DNA of 20,000 nt. It comes from Tricharina praecox (Eukaryota). Position numbers and translations under genes: made by a program. Positions 938 through 20,000 of this stretch are shown one piece after another (positions within the stretch are counted from its first letter, which is position 1; each line of letters opens with the position of its first letter). The stretch covers positions 1,175,375 to 1,195,374 of the forward strand of contig NW_026250413.1 in NCBI RefSeq assembly GCF_024521635.1. Direction: 5' to 3'. The notes beneath the pieces were generated by a model. That model was not told the origin of the DNA. It did no database searches and saw only the letters and a list, made by a program, of their open reading frames with translations.

Positions 938-1595
938 AGCGAATTCAGCAAAGATGCCTTGGAGCGAATCCAGTACAGAGCCCTGGGAGCGAATGTAGTG
1001 GAGAGGCCATGGCAGGGAAAGCAGTAGGGGCCCTGGGAGCGAATGAAGTAGAGAGGCTATGGCAACGAATCCAGTACCGAGCCATGGCAGCGAGTCCGGT
1101 CAAGCGCTCTGGGAATGAATCCAGTAGAAAGATCTGGCAGCGAATCCAGCAGAGAGGCCTTGGGAGCGAATCCAGTACAGAACCCTTGCAGCGAATCCAG
1201 CAGAGATGCCTTGCAGTGAATCCAGTACAGAGGCAGAGAGGCCTTGGAGCGAATACAGTACAGCGCCATGGGGGCGAATGCAGTAGACAGGCCATGGCAG
1301 CGAATCCAGTACAGAGCCATGGCAGCGAATCCAGTACAGAGCTATGAGAGCGAATGCTGTAGAGCAGCTGGGAGCAAACTCAGCAGAGAGGCCATGGCAG
1401 CGAATCCAGCAGAGAGGCCATGGCCAGGAATGCAGTACAGAGCCCCGGGAGCGAATGCCATGGTGAGCTCTGGGAGCGAGTGCAGTGATGCAGCCCTGGG
1501 AGCTAATGCAGTGGTAAGGCCCTAGGAGCGACTCCAGGACTGAGCCGGGGGAGAGAAACCAGTACAGAGTAATGGTAGCGAATCCACCTGAGAGG
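938..1595 (+). repeat. Degenerate ~25-26 bp minisatellite, core GCGAATCCAGTACAGAG
   Basis: Recurring unit such as GCCATGGCAGCGAATCCAGTACAGA (adjacent near-perfect copies at ~1291-1345) with many variants. Translations give repeated WIRC / RIQYR / ANPVQ peptides. Confidence 0.9.
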
Positions 1596-2190: not shown

Positions 2191-2330
2191 TGTCACACCC
2201 CCATGGACTCTCCTGTAGTCACAGCCACAGGAGTTCGTTCAGAAGGGATCGGAAAACGTCATTAAATAGTCATAGCAGAGAGACAAGTTACGCAGAAGTG
2301 AGCAAACGTAATCCAGAGTCTAGATGTAAC
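2191..2330 (+). mobile_element. 5' fragment of an older LTR (D), distant relative of the B/C LTRs, interrupted by element A
   Basis: Starts TGTCACACCCC (the B LTR starts TGTGACACCCC). 2300-2324 GAGCAAACGTAATCCAGAGTCTAGA matches 18505-18529 at 23/25, at a similar distance from the LTR start. Confidence 0.65.
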
Positions 2331-2840
2331 TGTCACGGCTCGCGACGGCACGTTCCAAGAAGAGTCGGAACAGGGATCGGAAGGCAGCGCCGGGACAGTG
2401 CAAGGGGCTGCGCGGGCGGCAATGCAAGAATGAGCCGGAGGGATTGGGGCTGTGTGTTGGTAGCAGGGGTAGCGCGGCAGTGCAGGCTGTGACTCACTGG
2501 AGCGGGGTATCGGCGAGGAGAATTTCTCAGGGTCTAACACATGCCCACGGTCATAGTCAGGTTGCGGGAAGAAGTGGAGGATTTCCTATATAAACGGGCC
2601 GGCGCCCCTCTGTAATTAGTTCTTCACGCAACAACTTGTTAATTCAATCACTGTTACCTCTGTCCTTGCCTCGGCTGCCGTCTGCGCCGTAGTCCTTGTC
2701 CCTGTCTCTGTTCTCAGTTGCCGTCCGCACTGAGCCCTGCCTCACCTTGTCCTCTGAACCTGTCTTGTCTCTGCCGAACCTAGAACCCGATTCCGAGCCC
2801 GACTTCGCTACCTGGAGCCTTGCCCGACCATGCCGTTACA
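2331..2840 (+). repeat. 5' LTR of element A (510 bp)
   Basis: Termini TGTCACGGC...GCCGTTACA (imperfect inverted repeat). Homologous to the inverted solo LTR at 5242-5386/12761-13174. gag ATG follows at 2880. Confidence 0.93.
2587..2594 (+). promoter_or_regulatory. TATA box in LTR A
   Basis: TATATAAA about 33 nt upstream of the putative self-primer; conserved as the reverse complement TTTATATAG in the solo copy near 12862-12870. Confidence 0.65.
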
Positions 2841-2842
2841 CT

Positions 2843-2850
2843 TTGTTGCG
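2843..2850 (+). promoter_or_regulatory. Putative self-priming PBS of element A
   Basis: TTGTTGCG, 2 nt after the LTR end, is the reverse complement of CGCAACAA at 2627-2634 within the LTR. There is no TGG tRNA-type start. Confidence 0.65.
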
Positions 2851-2879
2851 CCGCCCATCTCTCCACCTAGCGAAGAACC

Positions 2880-4070
2880 ATGGCCACCAACACCCCAGCA
2901 CCAGACCCTCCCCAGCAGGAGGAAGTACCGGTGGCACCCCCCTACTATCGAGAAATTCCCGCCACCGTCTACGAGCAACTCGAGATCATCGTCAACCACG
3001 ACTCACCCGCCGACAATGCGACACTGTTGGGGTTATATAACCAGTTCCAAATCATAGCCCGCGCAATCACCCAGTCCCCCACAGCAGCACCCACCTGGCG
3101 AGTAGACGACCTCGAAGAACAACTTGCCAACTCCCGTCGTATCGCCAACCTTCTCGCCACACTAGAAACCCAACCCCAGGGCCGCGCCGAGCGCGTCCCG
3201 GAGCCAGCCATGTTTGATGGCACTCGAGAGAAGCTTGAAGGGTTTGTTGCCCAGCTTCAACTCAAACTGTACAGCGACCCTACCCGTTTCCCGTCCCCAG
3301 CACTCACAATGGCCTACACCTTCAACCGTCTCGAAGGCCGTGCCCAGGCCCAGATACTGCCGTACATCCAGAACAACGTGATCAGCTTGACCGGTGCCGA
3401 TGCCATGGTCACCATCCTCGAAAAGGCCTTCGGCGATCCCGACCCAGCGGCCACCGCACGCGCCGAACTCCACCGTCTCAAGCAAGGGAACAAGGACTTT
3501 ACGTCTTACTTTGCGGAGTTTCAAAGGCTTGTGTCCAAGCTGAACTGGGACGAGCATGCCAAACTCGATGCACTACGCGAAGGAGTCTCCATTTAGCTCC
3601 ACCGACAACTGGTGGGCCGCACTCAGGGACTCACCTACAACCAGTTCGTGGCTCTCTGCCAGAGCCTCGACTCCGAGCTACGGGCCCTCCAACTCCGTGA
3701 AGGCCGCCGCAACCCCCCGCGACGAAACAACAGCCCGCAACTCCCAGCTCCGCCCAGGAATCCGGCCCATAACAGTACACCACCAACAACCACTGCAACC
3801 GGAACAGCCCCAGGGGCTATGGACCTCAGCGCGAACAGTCGCAAGATCTCTGACCAAGAGCGAGCTGCACGTCTCCGCGAGGGACGTTGCCTGTACTGTG
3901 GAGGCAGTGGCCACATGGCCCGACACTGCCCCAACAAGAATCGGAACCCTTTCCGTGCCGCAGCTGCACAGCTGACGTTTGAGCAACCCGGAACCCCGAC
4001 CCCAGACCACCCGTACTACAATTGCAACCAGAATTGTGGCGACAACCAACCGCAGTCGGGAAAAGCCTAG
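2880..4070 (+). pseudogene. gag: gag of element A with one in-frame stop (TAG 3594-3596)
   Basis: ORFs 2880-3596 and 3612-4070 are in the same frame. Contains a retrotransposon-gag motif (PEPAMFDG...LKQG...YFAEFQRL), an AMDL motif and a CCHC knuckle CLYCGGSGHMARHC. Confidence 0.92.
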
Positions 4071-4103
4071 ACCAACAACCGCTTGATGGCACTGTTGTTG
4101 GTC
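4058..4103 (+). promoter_or_regulatory. -1 ribosomal frameshift signal of element A
   Basis: Slippery heptamer G GGA AAA (4058-4064) in the gag frame, with pol in the -1 frame. A 10-bp perfect stem GACCAACAAC (4070-4079) / GTTGTTGGTC (4094-4103) follows. Confidence 0.8.
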
Positions 4104-5241
4104 GTACCCAGGATAAGTCTGTTTCTCCGTTTTCTACTCATTTTCGTTTGTCCAATTTGTCAGTGTCTGGGATGGTAGTGGAGGAATCATCAATGGAAGG
4201 GAAACATCTTGTTGTGCTATGTAACCTTTCGTTTGGTGACAAAACCATTGCCACACATACGCTGATCGATTGTGGAGCAACCGGAATCGCCTTTGTAGAC
4301 AAAGACTTCACCCGCCATCACAACCTACCCCTCGTACCCCTAGAATCCCCGCGCGCCCTTGAGGTCATCGACGGCCGCCCCATCGAGTCCGGCGACATCA
4401 CACACGTTGCCACCACCACCCTGTCAATCCAAGAGCACCAAGAAGAACTCCCCATGTTCGTCACCAAACTGGGGCACAACCCAATCGTACTCGGAATTCC
4501 CTGGATGGACCTACACGACGTGGCCATCCGATTCAGCTCCCGCACCCTCACTTTTGGTTCCCAATATTGCACTGCAAACTGCAATACGGTACCTACAGTA
4601 GCTCACTGTATCACCACGAACCCACCAGAACTACCCTACGCTCTCGCACCAAACGTAGCTCTGGAAGAGCCAGCGGTAAGCGCGGGGGCCGGCGACATCA
4701 TGGCCCGGTGCATTACGTCTCCCCAGATCAAAGAACACCAGCAGGGTGCTAACCGGAGGGAACCCACGGTCATAATCTCAGCCCTCTGAATGAAGCCTTT
4801 CCAGCAGATGACAGAAAAGGAGAACCTCACCATCTTCGCCACGACCCTAACGGAGATCAATGAAGCTCTATCTGAAGAAAAACAGAGCCCAACCGCCCAC
4901 ATTCCCCCCGAATACCACGAATTTCTCCACCTCTTCTCTGAAAGGTTGGCGCAGAACCTACCACCCCATCGGCAATACGACCACAAGATCCCACTAAAGG
5001 AAGGATTTGTGCCCCCTTACGGACCCCTCGATTCCCTCTCGAAAATCGAGCTGGTCGCACTCAAGGAATGGCTTGACGACAATCTGAGCAAGGGATTCAT
5101 CCGTGCGTCCTCATCACCAGCGGCATCACCGATCCTGTTTGTCAAAAAATCAGACGGCTCCTTGCGACTGTGTGTGGACTATCGAGGCCTGAACGAAGGA
5201 ATCATCAAGAACCGCTACCCACTTCCCCTGCTCCAGGAAAC
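4058..5241 (+). pseudogene. pol: pol of element A, 5' segment (aspartic protease, start of RT); in-frame TGA at 4787-4789
   Basis: LIDCGATG protease active site; [21 protein letters not shown]...NRYPLP RT N-terminal motifs. Confidence 0.92.
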
Positions 5242-5386
5242 TGTAACGGCACGGACGGGCAAGGCTCCAGGTAGCGAAGTCGGGCTGGGGATCGGGTTCT
5301 GGGTTCGGTAGAGGCAAGACGGGTTCAGGGGACAAGGTGAGGCAGGACTCAGTGCAGACGGCAACTGAGAACAGAGGCAGGGACAA
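5242..5386 (-). mobile_element. A-family solo LTR (A'), U5 part, inverted relative to A and split by element B
   Basis: Similar to the reverse complement of ~2696-2840. Starts TGTAACGGC; left TSD GAAAC at 5237-5241. Confidence 0.93.
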
Positions 5387-6075
5387 TGTGAGACTGGGAC
5401 GGGTTTGTGTCGTCGGAGTCTATAGTAAAATCGAGGATAGAATAAAAGTCAGGGATTTCGATAATTCACAACGGAATAATCTTAAGGGTGTTTCTTCGAT
5501 GGTTTGTTCGGTGCGATGATTGTGTTTTGTTCGGTTGCCCGCTCGGTTCGACTTATAGTCGTCCCGATCCTCAGCACGTGATTCCTCTAGAGTGCGGCCT
5601 AACGTAGCTCCGTTGCTTCCTTTGCATCGGAGTTCCGCGGCCTAGCCTTGAGTCGTCGTCAGCTCTCTTCGGATAGTCTTCTCGACTAGGCAGGTGGTAA
5701 ACACCACGCGCCCAAGATAGATCGGGGTTTCCGAGCAATTATCTCCCTCATGCGCCGGCAGAGTTCTTCGCTCGAAGTTGTCTGCCCCCATCGGTCGATG
5801 TTCGATTCTCTCGTCATAACAGTTTTTTCCTGGATCGGAGTTCCTACTGCGGGGCCCTATGATCGGAGATCTCAAAGTCCTCTGGACTGTTATCCCGATC
5901 TCCCGCATCTCCGATCACTGTCTAGACTCTGGAATCCGTTTGCTCCCTCCTTCCTATCTTGTCTTTGATCGCTTCTAACTATCCTTTCGGCTCGCAACTC
6001 TATTCTAATCACCCGAACTATCTAATCACATCTCTTGCGACCGTCGTGTCCTCCGATACCTATCGGGGTGTCACA
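5387..6075 (-). repeat. 3' LTR of element B
   Basis: Direct repeat of 12067-12755; the only difference seen is 5853 G versus 12533 A. Confidence 0.97.
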
Positions 6076-6089
6076 CCATCTCCCCTTCC
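6076..6089 (-). promoter_or_regulatory. Polypurine tract of element B
   Basis: Minus strand reads GGAAGGGGAGATGG directly before the 3' LTR TGTGACA. Confidence 0.9.
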
Positions 6090-6217
6090 ACGAGGCTTCG
6101 GCCCGAAGCACCCAAGTCCTCGCCTTTATCCTAACTTGATAACTGTGGATGAAGTCCTCCAACCCCTTCATCCTACTACCTGCCCGAGTTCGAGAAAAAC
6201 CACATGGGAAAAAACTC

Positions 6218-9200
6218 TTACTCATCTGTGAGCCGGTAGTCCCTCGGCGCATCGGGATTTTTGCGATGAAACTCGCGTAGCTTTTCCCGACCGCCTACTG
6301 AGAAGTTGTCGAATGGCTCGTTCGTCCAGTCCCGTCGTTCGGGGTAGTTGAGCCATTTGACGAGGTAGAGCACTCGTCGACCTTTCTTCGAGCTGCCCAT
6401 AACCTCATCGACGTCGTATTCTTCGTTGCCTTCCACATCATCGGCCTCTCGTAAGATTTGAGAGGGATCCGGTGGTGCTCGGGTGCCGGCTCGGAACGGT
6501 TCAACGAGCGAGACGTGAAAGACATTATGAATCTTCCACTTCCTTGGCAGAGTGAGCTTGACAGCGAGCGGCGATACGATCTTCTCGATTTGGAAGGGAC
6601 CATGGTTCTTGTGGTCCAACTTCCGCGAGGGTCGGCGGGTTTGAATGTTCCGCCCATTGAGCATTACCAAGTCTCCTACTTGATAAGCCGGTGCCTCCTG
6701 ACGATGTTGATCTGCATACTTGCGCATTCGTTCGCGCGTTCGTTCGAGGGTCTTGATGTTTTCCTCGTGGACTGTATGCATCCAGTGAGCGTAGACCTTG
6801 CTGGCGGGGTTGAGAGAATTTGCCGCAGCAGGGTTTGTCGCCGACGGGTGGTATCCGAAATTCGCATAGAAGGGCGACATTCCGGTTGCCGATGTAACCG
6901 AGTTGTTGTAGGCAAACTCAGCCATCGGTAGGAGATTCACCCAATCGTTCTGTTCGTAGTTGACGAAGGAGCGGAGGTATGCTTCGATCGTCTGGTTGAG
7001 GCGTTTGGTTTGTCCATCCGTCTGTGGGTGGAACGCTGTTGACATCCGGGGCTTAATGCCTAGCAGCCGGATGAATTCTTTCCATGTACCCGAGGTAAAC
7101 CGTGAGTCTCGGTCCGACACTATGTCTGCTGGTAATCCGTGAAAGCGCCATATCTCGCGGGCAAAAATCTTCGCGAGATCCTCGGCTATCTTTCCATCCT
7201 TAGGTAGGGGGATGAAATGCGCCATCTTGGTGAAGCGGTCGACGACCACCCATAGCTGGTCGCATCCGTTGGATTCCGGTAGGTCGGTAATGAAGTCCAT
7301 GGCTATTGATTGCCATGGGGTGTATGGTAACTCGAGGGGATTGAGTAGTCCATACGGCTGGTGCCTTGTTGCTTTGTCCTTCTGACACTGCGCGCAACTC
7401 CGGACGAAGTCTATAATCTGCTCGTCCATCTTTGGCCACCAGAAATTGCGTCGGATAAGTTCGATAGTCTTGTCCTGGCCCATATGCCCCGCGACTTTCG
7501 TATCGTGTTCCGACTCGAGGATGTGTCTGACGAGTTCCTTATCGTCTGGTACCCATAGCCTTTCTTTCCTATACAGGCACCCCTCTTCCATCCTCAAAAT
7601 CCTGGCCTTTCGGCCCATCCTGCCGGAGTCCCTACTCTCGGCGGCCAGTTCCCAGGCCTTTCGGCCCTCCGACTCAGTGTCCTTCTGAGCCGCGTCCTCG
7701 TTCGTGTCCTTGATGCTGCTCAGAGCCTCCTGATACCCAGCATCTTCCTTTCCTGCCTTCCTGACCCAACCCAGAAATTCTTCATTCCACTTTGGCACGG
7801 GGATTGAATGTAGCCGAGTTGACGAAACCAGAAACACGGTGCTCTCGCCTCCGGTGCTGATTGATGAAACTCTCGAATCGTCGCCTGCAAAGTGTGATTT
7901 ATGCAGGACCGTCGTAATCGGCTGATCTTCACCCCCCCCTTTTTCAGGGCGGTACTCCGGGCGCCTGGATAATGCGTCAGGCTTGCCGTTCTGGCTGCCG
8001 GGCCGGTAGTAGATTTTGAAGTCGATGCCAGCGAGTTCTTGTGCCCATCTCGCCTGCCGTCGATTGAGTACTTTCGTGGTTGTGAAGTACTCAAGGTTCT
8101 GGTGGTCGCTGTACACCTGGATCTGGTGTTTTGCTCCCTCAAGGTATTGCCGCCAGCGTTTGAAAGAGTCTACTATCGCGAGTAGTTCCTTATCGTGAAT
8201 CTCAAAGTTGATTTCGGCTGGGGTAAACTTTCTTGAGTGGAACGCAACTGGGCGTAACTTCCCATCCTCTGTCCTTTGAGACAGGACCGCGCCCAACGCG
8301 AAGTCCGAAGCGTCGGATTCCACCACGACAGGTAATTCTGGGTTGAAGTGCCCGAGAATCGGTGCCGTGGTGAACCTAGACTTCAGCTCCTCGAAGGCCA
8401 GTTCCATCTCCGCTGTCCATCTCCAATCCTTCCCTTTTTCTTTTGTGCTCTCGGTCAAGGGTCTCGTGATTTTTGAGAAATCCTTGATGAAGCGCCTGTA
8501 AAAATTGGCGAACCCAAGAAAGGCTTGTACTTCCTTCAGGGACCGCGGCGCCTCCCACGAGAGCACAGATTCCACCTTGTCCTTAGCCATCTCAATTCCA
8601 TCTTGGGATATCACGTATCCTAGGAACTCGACTCTCCCTGTCGACCAGACACACTTCTCTGGTGAGATTGCCAACTTATTTTCTTCCAACCTCTTTAGTA
8701 CCTCGATGACTATCTTGTCATGCTCCTCGTGCGTCTTCGCATAGATGAGGAGGTCATCGATGTACGCGACCAGTCCCAGGTCCAACATATCCCGGAATAT
8801 GTGGTTAATCATGTCCTGAAACGTCGCTGGAGCGTTGGTCAGCCCAAACGGCATGACCAAAAACTCAAACAGTCCGTATCGACAGCGGAAAGCCGTCTTC
8901 CACTCGTCACCTTCTTTTATGCGGATAAGGTGATAGCCATTCTTCAGATCAATCTTGGTGAAGACTTTCGCACCCCTGACTCGGTCTTGCAACTCTGCCA
9001 TGATCGGGAGTGGGTAGCGATTGGCTACGGTAATCTTGTTGATACCGCGATAGTCGACACACAATCGGAGACCCCTGCCGTGCGCCTTTGGTACAAATAA
9101 TATCGGCGCCCCGGCTGGTGATTTGGATCTTCGAATCTTGCCTGTCTGGAGCATCTCCTTGAGCCACTCCCTGAGGGCCTCAAGTTCTTTCTCTGACAGG

Positions 9201-10027
9201 GCATAGATAGGACCCCATGGAGGAGTCTCTCCTTCCTTGAGATCGATTGCGTGGTCGTAGGACTTGTGGTCGGGAAGCTTATCGGCTGCTTCCTTGCTCA
9301 TGATGTTGGCATATCGTCTGAATTTCTCCGGAAGCAGATTCATGGGTGGATCTGATTCCGGCCCAGCTGAGACGTATCCAATAATGCGAGCCTCCGAATT
9401 GTGAATGACAGACGTGTCAAGTTCCATCGGAAAGCTGGTTGCTTGTTGCAAGGTGCATTGTTCCTTGCATCGGGTGCTGGTGAAGCGAATTTTCTGTGCT
9501 TCATTCTTCCACAACCCTGTCGGTTCATGCTTAGCCATCCACCAATACGGGAGGTAGGCATCGCAGTCGTCCAAGGGAGCCACTTCGAAGGTTTCGTTGG
9601 TGTAGTGCCTCCGGTGTTGAAGGAGCATCGGCATTGTATAATATTCCCCGGCTCCTTCCACTATGGTTCCGTGGAAGTCCTTGATTTCCACCGGCTTAGG
9701 TCGTTGAATGAGAGGCAACCCAAGTTCTCGTGCAAGGCTTCGTTTGATGATCGGAATGGCACATCCTGTGTCAAGGAGTACTCGGATCCGTCGTCGCTTG
9801 TGCTCAGACCAGAGGAGCATCATTTCTATGATTGGTCGTGGTCCGCTGACAGGTTTTGGGGGCTCACACCCTGAGGCGCTCGGCGCGGTTGGACTCGTAG
9901 AAATAGGTTGGTCCGTTCGTCTTCGCTTATCTCTGGATTCGCTGTCGATATCCTGAGGCCGTGGTCTCTTCGTTCCGCAAACATATACACTTGGCCGTCC
10001 AGTCTGCGGAGTGCTGGGGCCGCTCAA
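6218..10027 (-). CDS. pol: Pol polyprotein of element B (PR-RT-RNase H-IN-chromodomain), probably expressed as Gag-Pol by -1 frameshift
   Basis: Motifs LLDTG, LCVDYR, YIDD, ESDASD, SDHQNL, HHCC zinc finger, MDFI...SDRD...QT(K)R, GPF, and a C-terminal EYDVDEV...YLVKWLNY chromodomain. The listed start is a TTG overlapping the gag stop. Confidence 0.96.
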   Translation of the reverse strand: MSGPSTPQTGRPSVYVCGTKRPRPQDIDSESRDKRRRTDQPISTSPTAPSASGCEPPKPVSGPRPIIEMMLLWSEHKRRRIRVLLDTGCAIPIIKRSLARELGLPLIQRPKPVEIKDFHGTIVEGAGEYYTMPMLLQHRRHYTNETFEVAPLDDCDAYLPYWWMAKHEPTGLWKNEAQKIRFTSTRCKEQCTLQQATSFPMELDTSVIHNSEARIIGYVSAGPESDPPMNLLPEKFRRYANIMSKEAADKLPDHKSYDHAIDLKEGETPPWGPIYALSEKELEALREWLKEMLQTGKIRRSKSPAGAPILFVPKAHGRGLRLCVDYRGINKITVANRYPLPIMAELQDRVRGAKVFTKIDLKNGYHLIRIKEGDEWKTAFRCRYGLFEFLVMPFGLTNAPATFQDMINHIFRDMLDLGLVAYIDDLLIYAKTHEEHDKIVIEVLKRLEENKLAISPEKCVWSTGRVEFLGYVISQDGIEMAKDKVESVLSWEAPRSLKEVQAFLGFANFYRRFIKDFSKITRPLTESTKEKGKDWRWTAEMELAFEELKSRFTTAPILGHFNPELPVVVESDASDFALGAVLSQRTEDGKLRPVAFHSRKFTPAEINFEIHDKELLAIVDSFKRWRQYLEGAKHQIQVYSDHQNLEYFTTTKVLNRRQARWAQELAGIDFKIYYRPGSQNGKPDALSRRPEYRPEKGGGEDQPITTVLHKSHFAGDDSRVSSISTGGESTVFLVSSTRLHSIPVPKWNEEFLGWVRKAGKEDAGYQEALSSIKDTNEDAAQKDTESEGRKAWELAAESRDSGRMGRKARILRMEEGCLYRKERLWVPDDKELVRHILESEHDTKVAGHMGQDKTIELIRRNFWWPKMDEQIIDFVRSCAQCQKDKATRHQPYGLLNPLELPYTPWQSIAMDFITDLPESNGCDQLWVVVDRFTKMAHFIPLPKDGKIAEDLAKIFAREIWRFHGLPADIVSDRDSRFTSGTWKEFIRLLGIKPRMSTAFHPQTDGQTKRLNQTIEAYLRSFVNYEQNDWVNLLPMAEFAYNNSVTSATGMSPFYANFGYHPSATNPAAANSLNPASKVYAHWMHTVHEENIKTLERTRERMRKYADQHRQEAPAYQVGDLVMLNGRNIQTRRPSRKLDHKNHGPFQIEKIVSPLAVKLTLPRKWKIHNVFHVSLVEPFRAGTRAPPDPSQILREADDVEGNEEYDVDEVMGSSKKGRRVLYLVKWLNYPERRDWTNEPFDNFSVGGREKLREFHRKNPDAPRDYRLTDE

Positions 10028-10033
10028 AAATCC
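9974..10033 (-). promoter_or_regulatory. -1 frameshift signal of element B with predicted H-type pseudoknot
   Basis: G GAU UUU immediately before the gag UGA, then a 5-nt spacer. Stem 1 is GGCCCCAG / CUGG(AC)GGCC; stem 2 is loop UCCGCA pairing with downstream UGCGGA. Confidence 0.75.
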
Positions 10034-12027
10034 TCCGGCTCACTCTCATTCCTTTCCCAGAATGGAGGGGCCTCCGTCATTGCTTCATCCTCCACCACAA
10101 CCGCCGCAGCCTTGTGTTGCTTGGACCTCGGTCGAGTGGGTTCGGCATCCTGGGTGTCCCGCTTTCTCTTTGTCACGGATGACACCTTTGGACTTTCGGG
10201 GAGTTCGGTACCCGCGACTGTTTTTCTGGCGTAGCATTGGAAGGTTCGGTGGCCGTCTCGTCCGCAACGCCAACAGTCGCACTTGGATGCTTTGTGGGCA
10301 TCGATCTCCTTCTGGGGAACCCCTACCAGAGCCTCCTTTGCTCCTGCGTAGATGTCCCCTTCCCTTGTCCTTCCCTTCCTGACTCCTGTTGCTTCCTTGG
10401 CCTTTCGGCCCTCCGGGGACTCCCCGCTTTCCTTGCGGCCCCCGGGGTCTCTGCCCTTTCCTTGGCCCTGCCGGCCGTTGCCAGGTCCCTTCCGGTCGCC
10501 GCCGGAACCCTGGCTACCCGATCCCCCTTTCCTCATTGCCCTTGCCTTTTTCAGCGCGTCCCGTCGTTCCACATGGTTACCAGCCCTGAGCACCGTTTCC
10601 AGGAAGTCTTCATCGTCTTCGTAGGGTTCGGTGTGCTGGTTGAAGCACATATCGACGATGTCGGTAGTCATGGCCTGGTTGACTATGTCTTGTAGCGGTT
10701 CGCCGGTGGCGCGAGCGATCATGTTGAGCGATCGGAAGGAGGTCATGTAAGCCTGAATGTCTCCTTTGTATTCGAGGGCCCACATCCTTCTTAATGCGTT
10801 CGCTCCTTCCTGCGTGTCGCGGTACGCCTCCTTGAGTGCCTCTTGATACGCCTGCCAGGTATCTTCCAAGTGTAGCTGTCTCAGGCTTTTTCGACGGGCC
10901 TGATGCCATTCTGCCGCTGTCCCTTCCAGTCGGGATCCCACCCACGCTATCTTCTGCTGCTCGTTTGTCTCTGGGTGGAACTCAAGATATTCTTCAACTG
11001 AGTCCCACCATGGACGGAAGGCTGTTCTTTGCTTGCCATCGAACGGCTTGGGCTCTTTCATTTTAAGCTTGATGGCCCTCGGGTTCGATGCGGAGACGGC
11101 AGCAGCGATGATCCGAGCGAAGCGACTCTCTTGATCTTCGTCGTTTTCTCTTGGTAGCGGGGCGTTTCGGTGACGGGGCGGCGAACGACGCGGCAAGGGG
11201 ATGGAACCGTCATCATCCGATGGTTCCTCATCCGAGGGATCACCTCCAAGGTTAGTCACCGGACGTCTTGGGGGTGGAGGAGGAGGGGACATTCCTGCAC
11301 CTGCCGGAGTTTCCCTTGTTGCTGACCTTTCTGCCCGCGATCCTCCTCTTGGGGTGGTGTTTACCCACTCTGGGGCCTTTTCCTTCGCCTTCCCTGTCCT
11401 TACCTCTACAGCCTTCAATTTGTTCTCTGCTCGAGCGATTTTTTCCTTGATTCGCTGTTGCTCCTTGTAGAGGTATTCTGCCTTCTCTTCCTGTTTCCCT
11501 GCCCAAATTTCCACGTTGCGGTTGTACACCGCTTGCTCCCTGCGTTGTTCGACTTGCGCCGTTTCGAGGAACACAATGGCGTCTTGTAGCCGAGCGTTTG
11601 CGACGCTTTGCAACTCGCGGTTGTCTTCGTCTTTCTGGTTACGTTCTCGAATGACTGCCCATACGTCGCTGCTCAGGGCGTGCGTCGCGTTCGCTACCGT
11701 TGACAGCTCGGTTCGAAGCCATTCTGTATTCATTTCGGCATTGTGAGCGTAGAGGTTGTACACATACTTGACCCCATCGCAGAGTTGTTCGTAGTTCCTT
11801 CTGATTTCCTGCATTCGGGAGTCCTCTTCGTTGAACTTCTGATCGCATGCTTGGTAAAGCTGGCGCAGGTCTCTTTGTGCCGTTTGGTATTGGTGGTTCA
11901 TCAGCCTGAGCCAGGCTGCCGGGTTTCGTACTTCGATGGTTTCGGATGCTTGCGGGATGCTAACGAGCGCATTGCTCAGGGTCTGAGGAAGTTCGAGGCG
12001 GAGCATGTCGAGGTTTGAGGAGGACAT
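10024..12027 (-). CDS. gag: Gag of element B (667 aa)
   Basis: ATG 40 nt after the 5' LTR. Helical N-terminus, poly-Pro, KEPKPFDG capsid-like domain and CCHC knuckle CWRCGRDGHRTFQC. Confidence 0.94.
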   Translation of the reverse strand: MSSSNLDMLRLELPQTLSNALVSIPQASETIEVRNPAAWLRLMNHQYQTAQRDLRQLYQACDQKFNEEDSRMQEIRRNYEQLCDGVKYVYNLYAHNAEMNTEWLRTELSTVANATHALSSDVWAVIRERNQKDEDNRELQSVANARLQDAIVFLETAQVEQRREQAVYNRNVEIWAGKQEEKAEYLYKEQQRIKEKIARAENKLKAVEVRTGKAKEKAPEWVNTTPRGGSRAERSATRETPAGAGMSPPPPPPRRPVTNLGGDPSDEEPSDDDGSIPLPRRSPPRHRNAPLPRENDEDQESRFARIIAAAVSASNPRAIKLKMKEPKPFDGKQRTAFRPWWDSVEEYLEFHPETNEQQKIAWVGSRLEGTAAEWHQARRKSLRQLHLEDTWQAYQEALKEAYRDTQEGANALRRMWALEYKGDIQAYMTSFRSLNMIARATGEPLQDIVNQAMTTDIVDMCFNQHTEPYEDDEDFLETVLRAGNHVERRDALKKARAMRKGGSGSQGSGGDRKGPGNGRQGQGKGRDPGGRKESGESPEGRKAKEATGVRKGRTREGDIYAGAKEALVGVPQKEIDAHKASKCDCWRCGRDGHRTFQCYARKTVAGTELPESPKVSSVTKRKRDTQDAEPTRPRSKQHKAAAVVVEDEAMTEAPPFWERNESEPEDF

Positions 12028-12052
12028 TTTCGATAGAAATCGGTGACTGTAA

Positions 12053-12064
12053 CCTTAAGATTAT
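12053..12064 (-). promoter_or_regulatory. Self-priming PBS of element B
   Basis: Sense ATAATCTTAAGG, 2 nt after the 5' LTR, is perfectly complementary (12 nt) to sense CCTTAAGATTAT in the LTR at 12156-12167. Confidence 0.85.
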
Positions 12065-12066
12065 AG

Positions 12067-12755
12067 TGTGAGACTGGGACGGGTTTGTGTCGTCGGAGTC
12101 TATAGTAAAATCGAGGATAGAATAAAAGTCAGGGATTTCGATAATTCACAACGGAATAATCTTAAGGGTGTTTCTTCGATGGTTTGTTCGGTGCGATGAT
12201 TGTGTTTTGTTCGGTTGCCCGCTCGGTTCGACTTATAGTCGTCCCGATCCTCAGCACGTGATTCCTCTAGAGTGCGGCCTAACGTAGCTCCGTTGCTTCC
12301 TTTGCATCGGAGTTCCGCGGCCTAGCCTTGAGTCGTCGTCAGCTCTCTTCGGATAGTCTTCTCGACTAGGCAGGTGGTAAACACCACGCGCCCAAGATAG
12401 ATCGGGGTTTCCGAGCAATTATCTCCCTCATGCGCCGGCAGAGTTCTTCGCTCGAAGTTGTCTGCCCCCATCGGTCGATGTTCGATTCTCTCGTCATAAC
12501 AGTTTTTTCCTGGATCGGAGTTCCTACTGCGGAGCCCTATGATCGGAGATCTCAAAGTCCTCTGGACTGTTATCCCGATCTCCCGCATCTCCGATCACTG
12601 TCTAGACTCTGGAATCCGTTTGCTCCCTCCTTCCTATCTTGTCTTTGATCGCTTCTAACTATCCTTTCGGCTCGCAACTCTATTCTAATCACCCGAACTA
12701 TCTAATCACATCTCTTGCGACCGTCGTGTCCTCCGATACCTATCGGGGTGTCACA
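12067..12755 (-). repeat. 5' LTR of element B
   Basis: Direct repeat of 5387-6075, with TGTGA/TCACA termini. Confidence 0.97.
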
Positions 12756-12760
12756 GACAA

Positions 12761-13174
12761 GGACTACGGCGCAGACGGCAGCCGAGGCAAGGACAGAGGT
12801 AACAGTGATTGAATTAACAAGTTGATGCGTGAAGAACTAAATACAGAGGGGCAACGGCCCGTTTATATAGAAAATCCTCCACTTCTTCCCGCAACCTGAC
12901 AATGACCGTGGGCGTGTGCCAGACCCTGAGAAATCCACCTTGCCAGTACCCCACTTCCGTGACTCATACCCTGCGCAGCCGCACTACCCCTGCTTCCTGC
13001 ACACAGCCCCAATCTCCTGCGGCTCATTGCTGCGCTATCCCTGCTCCCTGCACACAGCCTCAAATCCTCTGCGACTCATCCTTGCACTGCCGGTGCACTG
13101 CCTCTGCACTGCCCCCCAACTCTCCCGGTCCTTGTGCCGACCCTCCCTTCGTCATTCCATCGCGAGCCGTGACA
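12761..13174 (-). mobile_element. A-family solo LTR (A'), U3/R part
   Basis: Continues 5242-5386 across the GACAA TSD. Ends CGCGAGCCGTGACA (reverse complement of the LTR A start); right TSD GAAAC at 13175-13179. Confidence 0.93.
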
Positions 13175-13179
13175 GAAAC

Positions 13180-15428
13180 CTTGATGCGACTGTCCGGTGC
13201 AAAGTATTTTACAACACTGGATATCCGCGGTGCTTACAACCTGGTACAAATGGCAGAAGGGGAGGAATGGAAAACGGCTTTCCGGACCCGCTACGGACTT
13301 TTCGAATCATTGGTAATGCCTTTCGGGCTAACCAACGCGCCAGCCGACTTCCAAGCCCTGATCAACGACATTTTACGACCGTTCCTGGACGGCTTCTGTA
13401 CCGCCTTCCTAGATGACGTCTTTATCTACAGCGAGTCACTGGAAGAACACCGAAAACAGGTCACCAAGGTGCTACGCGCCCTTTCATCGGCCGGACTGCA
13501 CTTGAAACCGGAGAAATGCCACTTCCACCAGACGGAGGTCAAATACCTGGGCCTGATCATAACCACTGAGGGTATTGAGATGGATCCTGCCAAAGTCTCT
13601 TGCGTACTCGAATGGGAAAAACCGACGACGGTCACGGATGTGCAGTGTTTTTTGGGCTTCGCGTACTTCTACCGACGCTTTATCCAGGACTACTCCAAGG
13701 TGGTATCTCCCCTGACGGCAATGACAAAAAAGGAAAATGGGAAGTACGTCCCCTTCGAATGGGGTATTGACCAACAGCAAGCCTTCGACACTCTCAAGAC
13801 TGCCTTCACTACCGCCCCGATACTCCGACATTTCGACTACGACCGAGAAATAGTGGTGGAAACTGATGCCTCGGATTACGTATCGGCCGGTATTCTCTCC
13901 CAGTACGACGACGATGGAATCTTGCACCCGGTTGCCTTCTATTCAAAGAAACACTCCCCGGCGGAATGCAATTACGAAATTTACGACAGAGAATTGTTGG
14001 CAATCATTCGGGCCTTTGAGGAATGTAGACCACACCTTGAAGGAGCCGCGCACCCGATCCAAGTCCTGAGCGGCCACAAGAACTTGGAATACTTCATGTC
14101 AACCAAGTTGCTCAACCGCCGGCAAGCACGATGGTCGGAATTCCTGTCCCGTTTCGACTTCAAAATCGTCTATTGACCTGGTAAAGCAGGAGGGAAACCG
14201 GATGCATTGACAAGGAGGTCAGGAGACCTCCCTAAGGAGGGGGATGAAAGACTGTTGGCAAACCAACAAGCAGTCCTCAAGCCCCAAAACCTGCCGGAAG
14301 AATTGAGATTGTCAGCAACCAACCCGTTGGAAGTACCCCGTCCCGCACTCTCTACCCTGATAACCGAAGCATATCAGGCAGATCCAGCACCGAACAAGAT
14401 CCTCCAACTGCTCAGAAACGGAACACGCCACTCGAAGGACATCTCGCTCGCCGACTGCAGCGAAGTCAACGGACAATTACATTACCGCGATTGCCTCTAC
14501 GTTCCTGAACACGACCCACTCAGACTTCGCCTGATCCAGGACCACCACGACCCGCCGGCTATGGGCCATCCCGGAAGAGCAAAAACCTTGGAACTCCTGG
14601 CCCCGAACTACTACTGGCCCCAGATGCGGAAGGACGTTGACTGATTCGTGAGGAACTGCCACACTTGCAGACGAACCAAAGCAACAAGACACGCCCCCTA
14701 CGGTGTGCTCCGCCCACTCCCAGTACCCGAGAAACACTGGCAACATATATCCGTCGACTTCGTAACCGGACTCCCTCCCTCAAAAGGATTCGATGCCATT
14801 TGCTTATTTGTGGACCGCCTCACCAAGCAACGACACCTGCTCCCCTGCAACACGACCATCACCTCCGAGGGACTCGCCGAACTGTTCTGCGATCGGATCT
14901 TCAGATACCACGGACTACCTGACACCATCGTATCGGACCGGGGCCCCCAGTTTGCCTCACGATTTTGGAAACATCTGTGCTCTTGCCTCAAGAACGACGC
15001 ACGGCTCGCCACGGCGTTCCACCCGCAGACAGATGGTCAAACAGAGAGGATGAATGCGGTAATGGAACAACACCTCCGGGCATACGTGAGCTACCTGCAG
15101 GACGACTGGGTCGGCTACCTGTTCTTAGCAGAGTTCGCTGGCAACAACCAAGCATCCGACACCACTACCCTGTCCCCGTTTTTTTCTAACCTAGGCTACC
15201 ACCTCCGTTGCGACTTCGAGCTTGACATCCGAACCGACACGAACGAAGAGCGACAGGCGCAGACAGCGGCAGAGCGACTCCAGCAGATCCACGACGTTGC
15301 CCGAAGTGAGATGCGCTACGCCCAAGCACGGCAGCAGGACAACATGGACCAGCACCGAACCCCCGCACCGGCCTTCCAGCCTGGACATATGGTATGGGTG
15401 GACGGCCGAAACTGGCGGACGGAGCGAC
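13180..15428 (+). pseudogene. pol: pol of element A, 3' segment (RT core, RNase H, integrase); TGA stops at 14174-14176 and 14642-14644; truncated before the GPY/F module
   Basis: Motifs [23 protein letters not shown] and VDF...SDRG...QTER. Three ORF-track pieces lie in one frame. Confidence 0.93.
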
Positions 15429-16165
15429 TGTGAGACTGGAACGATTTCGGTCGTCGGAGTCGATTGATAGAATGGGGTTTAGAATGAAAATAGATAGTAT
15501 TCTTTTCACAAGCGGAATAATCTTAAGGGGTAGTGTCGATGGTTTTCTGGTTGCTGATTCTGATGATGAATCTTTCGCCGTGTTGTCGGAAGTCTATATA
15601 GTTGGGTGATTTGGTCGGGTCACGTGCCAGCCGTTGCCGTAGCTTGTTGCCGGATGGAACCCTGGCGTGAAATCTCTGCACCTGGTGCGGAGACTTTCTC
15701 CACCATGTCATCAGAGTCGTCGTTAGCCTTCAGGAGAGTTTATACAAACTAGGCAGGTATGGCGCACCAATCCTTACCCGAGCATAGTCCGGTTTCAGCT
15801 ATCTTTTCGCTGGGCAACGGCTGCGCCTTTCGGCACGGCTCTTATTTGCTTAAGACGCGAGAAGAGGCGCAACACTCGCCATAGTGGTTTTTCTCCGATC
15901 AGAGTTTTTCTCTGCGCTTGTTCGCGATTCGCCTGCCTCAAGTCGAGCATGACTGTATCGGACTTTTCGTGCGTATCGCTGCGCCTCTGATCCCACCTAG
16001 ACTCTGGTTCCATTTGCTTCCTTCCTTCCTATCTCGTCTCCGACTAGCTACGACTAATCTAAAGGTTTTCCTCCTGCTCCCCGATCTATCTAACTATTTT
16101 TCCCGAACTTCCGTTGGTAAGAAGCCGAACCCTGAAGCCGGGCCGACTGCGACCAGGGTGTCACA
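15429..16165 (-). repeat. 3' LTR of element C (737 bp)
   Basis: TGTGAGACTGG...GGGTGTCACA termini like the B LTR; interior diverged but shares ATAATCTTAAGG and CTAGACTCTGG blocks. Confidence 0.9.
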
Positions 16166-16180
16166 CCATCTCCCCTCTCC
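16166..16180 (-). promoter_or_regulatory. Polypurine tract of element C
   Basis: Minus strand GGAGAGGGGAGATGG adjacent to the LTR. Confidence 0.88.
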
Positions 16181-16300
16181 GACGCTTTCGTCCCGAAGCG
16201 TGCTGAGTTCTATCTAGTCTATATACGGTGAATGCAGTCCTCCAACCCCTGCATCCTACTATCGCTCGGCTCAAGAGAAAAACCCAGTGGGAAAAAACTC

Positions 16301-18374
16301 TCAGTCTTCTGTGAGCCGATAGTCCCTCGGTGCGTCCGGATTCTTGCGGTGGAATTCCCGCAGTTTCTCCCGGCCACCTACTGAAAAGTTGTCGAAAGGC
16401 TCATGAGTCCAATCCCGTTTACTGGGATAGTTGAGCCATTTCACGAGGTAGAGTACGCGCCGTCCTTTCTTGGTGCTACCCATAACTTCCTCGACATCGT
16501 ATTCCTCGTTGCTCTCGACGTCATCCGCTTCACGGAGTATTTTCGACGGGCCGGGGGGATCTCGGTTGCCTGGTCGGTAGGGTTCGACAAGCGAGACATG
16601 GAAGACATTGTGTATCTTCCATTTCCGCGGTAGCGTGAGCTTGACGGCGAGGGGGGAAACGATCTTCTCGATTTGGAACGGACCATGATTTTTGTGGTCC
16701 AGTTTCCTCGAGGGGCGGCGGGTTTGTATATTCCGTCCGCTGAGCATTACCAGGTCTCCTACCTGATAAGCGGGGGCCTCTTGGCGACGTTGGTCGGCGT
16801 AGCGGCGCATGCGTTCCTGTGCTTGCTCAAGCGCCTTGATGGTCTCCTCGTGCACAATCTGCATCCAGTGCGCATAGACCGTGCTGTCGGGGTTGAGGGG
16901 GTTCGTCGCAGCAGGTCCGCTAGCTGTTGGGTGAAATCCGTATTTCGCGTAGAACGGCGAGAATCCAGTAGCCGTGGTGACCGAGTTGTTGTAGGCAAAC
17001 TCAGCCATGGGAAGGAGGCTAACCCAGTCGTCTTGGTCTTTGTTGACGAAGGAGCGGAGGTATGCTTCGATCGTCTGGTTGAGGCGTTCTGTTTGCCCGT
17101 CTGTTTGGGGGTGAAACGCCGTAGACATCCTTGCCTTGATGCCTAAAAGCTTCATAAATTCCTTCCATGTATCCGACGTGAAGCGGGAATCTCTGTCCGA
17201 TACAATATCCGTGGGTAGGCCGTGGAAGCGCCAGATTTCGCGGGCAAAGATTTTCGCGAGGTCGCTGGCTGTCTTGCCGTCCTTTCGTAGGGGAATGAAA
17301 TGCGCCATCTTGGTGAATCGGTCGATGACTACCCAGAGTTGGTCGCATTCCTCGGACTCGGGTAGATCAGTTATGAAGTCCATAGCGATGGATTGCCATG
17401 GAGCGTACGGCAGTTCGAGGGGGTTTAGGAGTCCATAGGGTTGGTGTCGCGCTGTCTTGTTTTTTTGACATTCAGGACAGCCACGCACGAAGTCGATGAT
17501 GGCTTCGTCCATTTTTGGCCACCAAAAGTTGCGTCGAATCAACTCAATCGTCTTGTCCTGGCCCATATGGCCGGCAACTTTGGTATCGTGCTCTGACTCC
17601 AGGATCTGCTGGATCAGGCTTTGGTTGTTCGGTATCCACAACTTCTCCTTCCGGTACACACATCCATCTTCCACCCTCAGTATCCCGGCCTTTCGGCTCA
17701 TCCGTTCAGAGTCTCTGCTCCGAACGGCATCCTCCTTGACCTTGCGGTCATTCGGCACGGAATTCCCACGTGCCGCTACCTCCTTACCCTTTCCGGTATT
17801 CGGCTCCAGTTCCTCAGAAGCCGCTTCACCAACGGTTTTGAGAGCTTTCTCCCACTCAGCGTCAGATCCTCCCTTCTGGCGCACCAATTCCAAAAACTCC
17901 AAAGACCATTTCCGTGTTGGGGTAGAGGTTAGCCGTACCGACGAGATCAGAAACGAGATACCGTGTCCAGCTGTGCTGATCGAAGAGACATTGTTCTTTC
18001 CTGCAAAGTGTTTTCCGTGCAGGATTGTCTTGATTGGTTGATCCTCACCCCCCCCTTTTTCAGGGCGGTATTCCGGGCGCCGGGAAAGAGCATCAGGTTT
18101 TCCATTCTGGTTTCCGGGTCGGTAGTAGATCTTGAAATTGATGCCGGCGAGCTCCTGTGCCCATCGTGCCTGGCGTCGATTGAGTACTTTTGTGGTTGTG
18201 AAGTACTCGAGGTTCTGGTGATCGCTAAAGACTTGCACCTGATGCTGTGCGCCTTCGAGGTATGGTCTCCAGTGCTTGAAAGCGTCGACAATGGCGAGTA
18301 GCTCTTTGTCGTGGATTTCGTAGTTGATTTCCGCGGGAGACAATTTCCTCGAATGGTAGGTGACAGGGTGCAGT
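16301..18374 (-). pseudogene. pol: pol of element C, 3' segment (RNase H C-part, integrase, chromodomain)
   Basis: Open frame with intact D-D-E (QTER), GPF and chromodomain. Joins the 19072-19850 segment as EEGRL|HPVTYHSRK after the solo LTR is removed. Confidence 0.93.
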
Positions 18375-19066
18375 TGTGACACCACGATAGGTATCGGAGG
18401 TCTCGACGGTTGTAAGAGATGTGATTAGATAGTTCGTGTGATTAGAATAGACTTGCGAGCCGAAAGGATAGTTAGAAGCGATCAAGGACAAGATAGGAAG
18501 GAGGGAGCAAACGGATTCCAGAGTCTAGACAGTGATCGGAGATGCGGGAGATCGGGATAACAGTCCAGAGCACTTTGAGATCTCCGTTCATAGGGCCCCG
18601 CAGTAGGAACTCCGATCCAGGGAAAAACTGTTATGACGAGAGAATCGAACATTGACCGATGGGGGCAGAGAACTTGGAGCGGAGAACTCTGCCGGCGCAT
18701 GAGGGACATATTTGCTCGGAAACTCCGATCTATCTTGGGCGCGTGGTGCTTACCACCTGCCTAGTCGAGAAGACTATCTGAAGAGAGCTGACGACGGCTC
18801 AAGGCTAGGCCGCGCAACTCCGATGCAAAGGAAGCAACGGAGCTACGTTAGGCCGCACTCTAGAGAAATCACGTGCTGAGGATCGGAACGACTATAAGTC
18901 GAACAGAGCGGGCAACCAAACCAAAAACTACAGTCATCGCACCGAACACACTATCGAAGAAACACCCTTAAGATTATTGCGCTGTGAATTATCGAAATCC
19001 CTGACTTTTATTCTACACTCGGTATCACCATAGACTCCGACGACACAAACTCGTTCCAGTCTCACA
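18375..19066 (+). mobile_element. B-family solo LTR (B', 692 bp) inserted antisense into pol of C
   Basis: Reverse complement of the B LTRs with scattered differences. TG..CA ends; TSD GCAGT at 18370-18374 / 19067-19071. Confidence 0.96.
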
Positions 19067-19071
19067 GCAGT

Positions 19072-19850
19072 CTTCCTTCTTCATCCTTCTGGGATAGGAC
19101 GGCACCGAGGGCAAAATCCGATGCGTCTGTTTCAACGATAACTGGTTCATTGGGTTGGAAGTGGGCCAGTATCGGAGCGGTAGTGAAGCGTTTCTTCAGA
19201 TCGTCAAAGGATTTTTGCATCTCGGGCGTCCATTGCCAATCCTTCTTATCGCCTTTCGTAGACTCCGTCAACGGGCGTGCGACCCTTGAGCAGTCCTTGA
19301 TAAGGCGGCGATAGAAGTTAGCGAAGCCCAGAAAGGATTGAACGTCTCGCAGGGACCGGGGTACTTCCCACTCGAGCACACTTCCCACTTTGTCTCCTGC
19401 CATCTTGATTCCTTCTCGGCCCACTATGTAGCCGAGAAATTCGACCTTATGCTTCCTCCACTCGCATTTTTCCGCTGATACGGCCAGTTTGTTCGCCGTC
19501 AGACATGGCAGGACCTCTTTGACTATTTCATCATGCTCCGCCCTGGTAGAGGCGTAGATGAGAAGGTCGTCAATATAGGCAACGAGGCCGAGATCAATCA
19601 TATCCCGGAAGATATGATGAATCATGTCCTGTAAGGTAGCAGGTGCGTTGGACAGTCCGAACGGCATAAGTAGAAATTCGTAGAGGCCATAACGTGTTCG
19701 GAATACTGTCTTCCACTCGTCCCCTTCCGTAATGCGTACCAGGTGATACCCATTCTTCAGGTCAATCTTGGTGAAGAACTGTGCTCCACGGATCCTGTTT
19801 TGTAGTTCAGACATGAGTGGGAGTGGGTATCGATTGGCGACAGTGACGCG
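19072..19850 (-). pseudogene. pol: pol of element C, RT core and RNase H N-part, cut at RVTVANRYPLP
   Basis: Motifs KIDLKNGYH, MPFGLSNAP, YIDD and ETDASD. The frame continues upstream of the listed Met to the telomere junction. Confidence 0.93.
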
Positions 19851-20000
19851 GGTTAGGGTTAGGGTTAGGGTTAGGGTTAGGGTTAGGGTTAGGGTTAGGG
19901 TTAGGGTTAGGGTTAGGGTTAGGGTTAGGGTTAGGGTTAGGGTTAGGGTTAGGGTTAGGGTTAGGGTTAGGGTTAGGGTTAGGGTTAGGGTTAGGGTTAG
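19851..20000 (+). repeat. Telomeric array (TTAGGG)n, 25 perfect units up to the window edge
   Basis: Uninterrupted GGTTAG repeats with the G-strand running 5'->3' toward the right end. Confidence 0.98.

Follow-up and report, generated by a model that had tools for sequence, protein, structure and literature searches.

Chromosome ends of the Tricharina praecox assembly join telomere repeats to nests of Gypsy retrotransposons and were probably healed there

Some retroelements are specialised for chromosome ends, including HeT-A and TART of Drosophila and Zepp of Chlorella, which are all of the non-LTR type. In Magnaporthe, seeds of 1-4 nt were found in 19 of 24 new telomeres at rDNA ends, and seeds of 1-7 nt in 17 of 23 truncated MoTeR elements (PMC7367193). 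Among 689 telomere junctions of Magnaporthe/Pyricularia oryzae, 48% were private to one strain (PMC8381367), and a helicase-bearing subtelomere is common to 11 of the 14 ends of strain 70-15 (PMC1635262). Neurospora crassa has short TTAGGG tracts and no common subtelomeric element, with a Pogo relic adjoining telomere VR and RIP-mutated repeats adjoining VIIL (PMC2596135). Of 31 AT-rich elements in Aspergillus flavus, nine sit immediately beside telomeres (PMC9910759). Following Cas9 centromere breaks in Cryptococcus neoformans, three of 32 ends were healed with repeats beside Tcn2, and a long seed was not required (10.1101/809848). The CNL1 arrays at Cryptococcus ends are of the non-LTR type (PMC12810828), and Helitron-capped chromosomes are reported in Paramecium (PMC13085455). 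For T. praecox itself, a HiFi assembly is reported (PMC12773724). A search of the open-licence literature, with subscription papers outside its scope, found no account of Tricharina or Pezizomycete chromosome ends and no genome with all ends healed inside unmutated LTR nests.

The window, which is the whole stretch of 20,000 nucleotides that was analysed, is the final 20 kb of contig C8 (positions 1175375-1195374 of 1,195,374) from the pyronemataceous ascomycete Tricharina praecox. A perfect (TTAGGG)25 telomere array occupies positions 19850..20000 on the plus strand and reaches the last base of the contig. It comprises 151 nt, or 25.2 copies of GGGTTA, with 100% matches, no indels and no variant units. 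With the window at the very end of C8, no assembled sequence lies beyond the array, and the adjoining pol sequence does not resume. The interstitial arrangement that the first-pass annotation named as a ground for abandoning its reading is therefore not found. The G strand of the array points outward, and from the contig end observed in the assembly we infer a physical end. It is highly probable that this is a real chromosome end, formed by distal loss inside a Gypsy element (element C) followed by telomerase capping, and that the same process acted at other ends. Taken alone, the C8 junction is very likely a new instance of known chromosome healing.

The array adjoins a minus-strand frame that matches RVT_1 (E 1e-28) from model position 60 onward and then RNase H, and it takes the place of the upstream part of the RVT_1 frame. 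Thus the abrupt start of perfect repeats within the pol of element C, reported earlier from the letters alone, is borne out. There are 10 other C-family matches that were compared, of which eight showed the junction anchor and two are partial copies without it. Past the anchor, seven of the eight intact copies continue GCGGTTGAG (read GACGCGGTTGAG) and one reads GCAGTTGAG (given also as GACGCAGTTGAG), whereas the window reads GACGCGGGTTAGGG across the junction. The array is therefore joined abruptly to non-telomeric DNA that carries on in intact copies. The paralogs that show the anchor also agree with the prediction that the next codon would be Asn and the original plus strand GCGGTT. At the C8 end, GCGG is followed by GTTAGGG, wherein the overlap in register with the repeat is GG (2 nt; 19850..19851, plus strand, by paralog comparison) and the added DNA begins with G, not T. 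The proposed GG(TT) seed is thus reduced to its first two bases, the TT being out of register; a one-base consensus error (the third G) would turn the overlap into GGTT.

Contigs from four of the 19 listed runs were compared with the C8 end. All of these are short and carry fixed differences from this strain, and the comparison covered the end apart from the repeat stretch at 19843-19873. One contig of run X3 passes 19840 by ~700 letters at ~96% identity and represents another copy or strain. In metagenome scans, there were no matches to the junction sequence and none to a word from the element B LTR.

The nest at the C8 end spans 17.7 kb. Its proximal edge is element D, a 140-nt stub of a B-related LTR (2191..2330, plus strand; 84% match to the B LTR over 44 nt). 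The 40 kb upstream of the window carry ordinary genes (GH43, and an aminotransferase ~25 kb upstream of the window) and no Gypsy match. At 99%, the aminotransferase matches a protein labelled Tricharina praecox, followed among named relatives by Wilcoxina and Trichophaea. Element A, a Gypsy element inserted into D in the plus orientation (2331..15428), retains its 5' LTR (2331-2840), gag and pol up to the integrase core, and lacks its 3' end and 3' LTR. Element C lies in the integrase of A on the minus strand. One part (15429..18374) comprises the rest of RNase H, the integrase, SH3, the chromodomain and the 3' LTR (~15429-16165), with the partner flank lost. The other part (19067..19851) holds the RT and the start of RNase H by domain matches, and lacks gag, protease, the RT N-terminus and the 5' LTR. 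This second stretch is 94-96% identical to seven near-full copies, and the break point falls ~3.7 kb into the 7.4-kb element, as measured on the complete copy in C61.

There are also three closed insertions in the nest, each with identical 5-nt duplications on both sides. These are a solo A-type LTR inside A that is split by B (5242..13174, minus strand; GAAAC), the full-length and recent chromodomain Gypsy element B (5387..12755, minus strand; GACAA; LTRs 99.86% identical), and a solo family-B LTR in the RNase H of C (18375..19066, plus strand; GCAGT). Because matched target duplications span each closed repeat, the path through the nest is anchored. B and C are Ty3/Gypsy chromoviruses, as indicated by their LTRs, 5-nt duplications, the order RT-RNase H-integrase, SH3 and the chromodomain. 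In element B, the gag and pol frames are open and the LTRs differ at one base; an LTR search gave 193 candidate places in the genome, and this family probably remains active. Next to the nest on its proximal side, window positions 938-1586 and 1901-1983 hold a degenerate 25-nt tandem repeat (~25 copies) with an inverted partial copy. The one frame overlapping this repeat that was scanned gave no Pfam match.

The three open hosts, D, A (left flank GTAAC) and C (left flank GCGAC), have lost their distal parts and partner duplications, as was noted at the outset, and the three closed insertions keep theirs. One break in C would take distal C, A and D together, and successive truncations would produce the same picture. 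The single terminal break proposed in the first-pass annotation is therefore one of two histories with identical anatomy, and the layers cannot be dated to tell them apart because the open elements have only one LTR.

The assembly surveyed for telomere arrays totals 38.4 Mb in 104 contigs. A 17-unit pattern gave 76 matches in 12 arrays and a 5-unit pattern gave 220, which equals 76 plus 12x12, and thus there is no further run of at least five units in the assembly. Each of the 12 arrays ends its contig, is 122-159 nt long, and has its G strand outward. All 12 are joined to Gypsy sequence, at 12 different sites, in three families and in both orientations (five terminal elements outward, seven inward). 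This answers in the affirmative the earlier question of whether other ends also stop within Gypsy sequence, with C14 contributing only a ~60-nt LTR fragment, and it lends no support to the view of healing as a rare accident. The array adjoins a gag or pol match at seven ends (C6, C8, C17, C28, C29, C38 and C39). C33 and C94 stop within the internal part of elements from an A-related family, C99 ends 30 nt beyond a solo LTR in C-family RNase H, and C72 and C14 end in A-type LTR sequence.

There are nine full nests anchored to unique DNA, measuring 3.6, 3.7, 3.9, 5.0, 7.2, 7.8, 10.5, 17.7 and 22.9 kb, and several nests have three or four open layers. C14 has the LTR fragment and a variant unit with no nest, and C6 and C99 are small contigs that consist wholly of nest. 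Two array contigs are small (1.5 and 4.6 kb) and are not tied to a chromosome. Genome Gypsy density rests on samples, and Gypsy cover was zero in all 20 interior 10-kb samples, taken at fixed positions on seven large contigs. Interior Gypsy clusters do exist, for example at C61 1.22-1.37 Mb, C10 0.20-0.25 Mb and C8 0.85-0.87 Mb, and these may be centromeres.

All 12 arrays lie on right-hand contig ends, which would occur with P = 5e-4 if orientation were random. Left-hand telomeres were found neither by the pattern search nor in the 20 left ends that were read; with a broader library, two of these 20 ends are wholly Gypsy and one is about half Gypsy. Loss of a contig's first read, as happens with some assemblers, would explain such a distribution. 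The right-only arrays indicate that the assembly treats its ends unevenly, and an assembler bias probably hides a share of the ends, perhaps half. Contigs without a telomere also often stop in Gypsy nests (four of seven right ends, chosen partly for nearby hits). The right ends of C83, C21, C26 and C42 and the left ends of C17 and C27 stop in nests and carry no telomere repeats. The right end of C83, where the proximal repeat of true ends is present, may be a chromosome end with an unassembled array.

An overlap of 1-3 nt with the repeat register is present at all 11 readable junctions. The overlap is GG (2) at C8, C6 and C17, AG (2) at C28, TT (2) at C38, TT or T (2 or 1) at C29, GGT (3) at C33, GGG (3) at C72, T (1) at C14, A (1) at C39 and G (1) at C99. 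The parents used for these readings are the closest paralogs rather than true ancestors, and they are ~96-99% alike at nine ends and ~88% at C14; the C72 parent is represented by two copies with an identical 23-nt flank. For C94, which is unreadable, no second copy with the same flank was found, so the 11-end test omits it and the 12-end test gives it an overlap of zero. When a random site and a random register were drawn on the real element sequences, the probability of an overlap of at least 1 nt was 0.44, which gives P = 1e-4 for 11 of 11 and P = 8e-4 for 11 of 12. For the summed overlap, P lies between 2e-4 and 5e-3 across the alternative readings. Observed overlaps average 1.9 nt (1.5 at the lowest reading), where 1.86 nt is expected if breaks occur anywhere and the best register is used, and 0.66 nt is expected for blind joining. 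The consistent overlaps, and a mean near the best-register model, thus argue that the ends were primed in register. Judged from these sequences, break sites appear to have no need for telomere-like sequence.

Several junctions exhibit additional features. At C6, C8, C17 and C99, a parental G run is followed by added DNA whose first base is also G, making three or four G in succession; at C6, three parental G are kept, of which two are in register. The extra G may represent the preferred alignment of the enzyme or homopolymer errors. Beyond the C29 junction (L049), the parental sequence is telomere-like (TTCGGGTTTGAG or TCTGGGTTTGAG), and immediately upstream of the junction the C29 end has a short run of A that is absent from the paralogs. 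At C14 (L046:9700-9912), ~60 nt of A-type LTR without an LTR end lie between low-complexity DNA and the array, which opens with one variant unit (TTAT). This end may be a captured fragment or an end that was healed twice.

A TERT gene is present on C17, where PF12009 (the RNA-binding domain) scores over the cut-off and RT motifs are visible by eye in adjoining frames. The de novo healing by telomerase that was proposed for C8 is thus supported by a terminal array of the right polarity, a 2-nt seed, the presence of TERT and the same signature at other ends. Overlap alone does not distinguish telomerase from microhomology joining. A broken end might instead have acquired an existing telomere tract by copying or capture (template switch, break-induced replication or end joining), with no telomerase priming, and the 1-3 nt overlaps fit this route too, as does the patched look of C14, with its LTR fragment lacking an LTR end and then its variant unit. 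However, no subtelomeric DNA was carried along, no junction is common to two ends, TERT is present, and telomere relics of at least 10 nt are absent from the nests and flanks of the 12 end regions, save for the variant start of the C14 array. We therefore consider microhomology capture to be unlikely.

The assembly itself offers two further explanations. The junctions might be real and yet sub-clonal, with the assembler misled by the nest into choosing a culture-born truncation. For Magnaporthe, two reports mention de novo telomeres that arose in culture (PMC1635262, as unpublished data; PMC8381367), and the two very small contigs with telomeres could represent alternative ends, but this explanation must hold for all 12 arrays when no longer conventional end is assembled anywhere, and it is quite improbable. 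Slightly harder still to credit is a chimera, formed in assembly or library, that joined telomeric reads to repeats. The right-only bias does reveal end artefacts in this assembly, and the ends do sit in repeats. Against this stand twelve independent joins that are all terminal, of correct polarity and of similar length, with in-register overlap beyond chance, and the C8 nest path that is anchored by matched duplications. Least credible, and largely refuted, is a telomere-targeting mode like that of MoTeR or HeT-A/TART, in which the retroelements attach to the telomere or insert into it. Elements are present at every assembled end, and ~8 of 10 anchored nests have an inward-pointing LTR at their proximal edge or beside it. 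Nevertheless, the elements are of the LTR type with an integrase rather than non-LTR, they also form interior clusters, their junctions fall mid-element in both orientations, and no telomere repeats are left on the proximal side. A related candidate, insertion into an old telomere, was rejected because the 12 end regions hold no relic of at least 10 nt apart from the C14 array start, and because the pattern of an LTR start plus repeat occurred at none of 146 loci.

A conventional shared subtelomere was likewise rejected for the assembled ends, since the repeat proximal to the nests of C17, C94, C72, C28 and C29 is also found at interior places. The sharing between tips is Gypsy paralogy with different breakpoints, and there is no common block directly next to the arrays. 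Two nests (C17, L047:5159-6106; C94:1266008-1266955) are immediately flanked on the proximal side by a 948-nt block of non-Gypsy DNA that is 98% identical between them, and weaker copies (70-80%) lie proximal to the nests of C72, C28, C29 and C83 and beside some interior clusters. The block may derive from an old repeat of subtelomeres or heterochromatin, or it may reflect sequence exchange among ends. A weak pattern is also evident at the proximal edges, where ~8 of 10 anchored nests have an LTR at or next to the edge with its 3' end toward the chromosome interior, six of them A-type. RIP of the elements was rejected as well. They are 52-57% GC with TpA/ApT of 0.61-0.72, and among the mutated contexts CpA does not rank first. 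There being no RIP signature, the junctions and seeds can be resolved to the single base.

The best reading is that terminal loss in Gypsy nests and healing by telomerase are the normal end structure in the Tricharina praecox assembly. Chromodomain integrases favour heterochromatin, and targeting of this kind would fill the nests, wherein chromodomain Gypsy elements pile up over 3.6-23 kb at the tips so that terminal losses fall within them. At C8, distal DNA would have been lost inside element C, via a break or via erosion after a capping failure, and telomerase would then have annealed to the final GG and extended it with TTAGGG repeats. Each loss would be healed in register on whatever 1-3 bases stand at the new end. 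If the cycle is ongoing, the nest would be a working subtelomere that is gene-free, refilled by insertion and trimmed by truncation, and such Gypsy piles may act as a disposable buffer at chromosome ends.

A single healed end is nothing unusual, but a genome whose assembled ends were each healed separately in readable, unmutated LTR nests would provide a natural set of telomerase priming sites, and this set suggests that no special seed sequence is required for healing. The long-standing idea of the subtelomere as a disposable buffer would become measurable through junction turnover, insertion versus truncation rates and TERT dependence. The nests may also provide a RIP-free model for the origin of AT-rich telomere-adjacent DNA in other ascomycetes. 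A bolder and doubtful possibility is that a self-renewing Gypsy ratchet replaces the classical subtelomere. Perhaps elements insert into telomeric heterochromatin, integration or LTR recombination causes breaks, healing proceeds in register at almost any base, and length reflects the balance of insertion and truncation. If this were true, parasites would shield the terminal genes, junctions would turn over between isolates, and the RIP-blurred telomere-adjacent DNA of Neurospora and Aspergillus might be the fossil form of the same cycle.

Tricharina resembles Magnaporthe/Pyricularia oryzae in the addition of TTAGGG to truncated ends on short in-register seeds. The truncated Magnaporthe elements are telomere-inserting non-LTR MoTeRs or rDNA, whereas Tricharina has LTR nests, no interstitial repeats and no shared tip sequence. 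As in Neurospora crassa, there are short TTAGGG tracts, repeats directly at the telomere and no common subtelomeric element. However, the Neurospora buffers are described as ~2 kb of AT-rich, RIP-mutated DNA whose origin is unreadable, in contrast to elements of 52-57% GC without a RIP signature. Cryptococcus neoformans likewise acquires new telomere repeats directly beside retroelements after a break, but its breaks were engineered at centromeres, whereas the Tricharina junctions are natural, occur at all assembled ends, and at C8 are separate from the interior Gypsy cluster. Retroelements accumulate at the tips as they do with CNL1, HeT-A/TART and Zepp, although here they are ordinary chromodomain Ty3/Gypsy elements and the normal short repeat cap is kept. 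Thus, short-seed healing itself is already known, and the novelty lies in the unmutated LTR nests that stand in place of a subtelomere at 12 of 12 ends.
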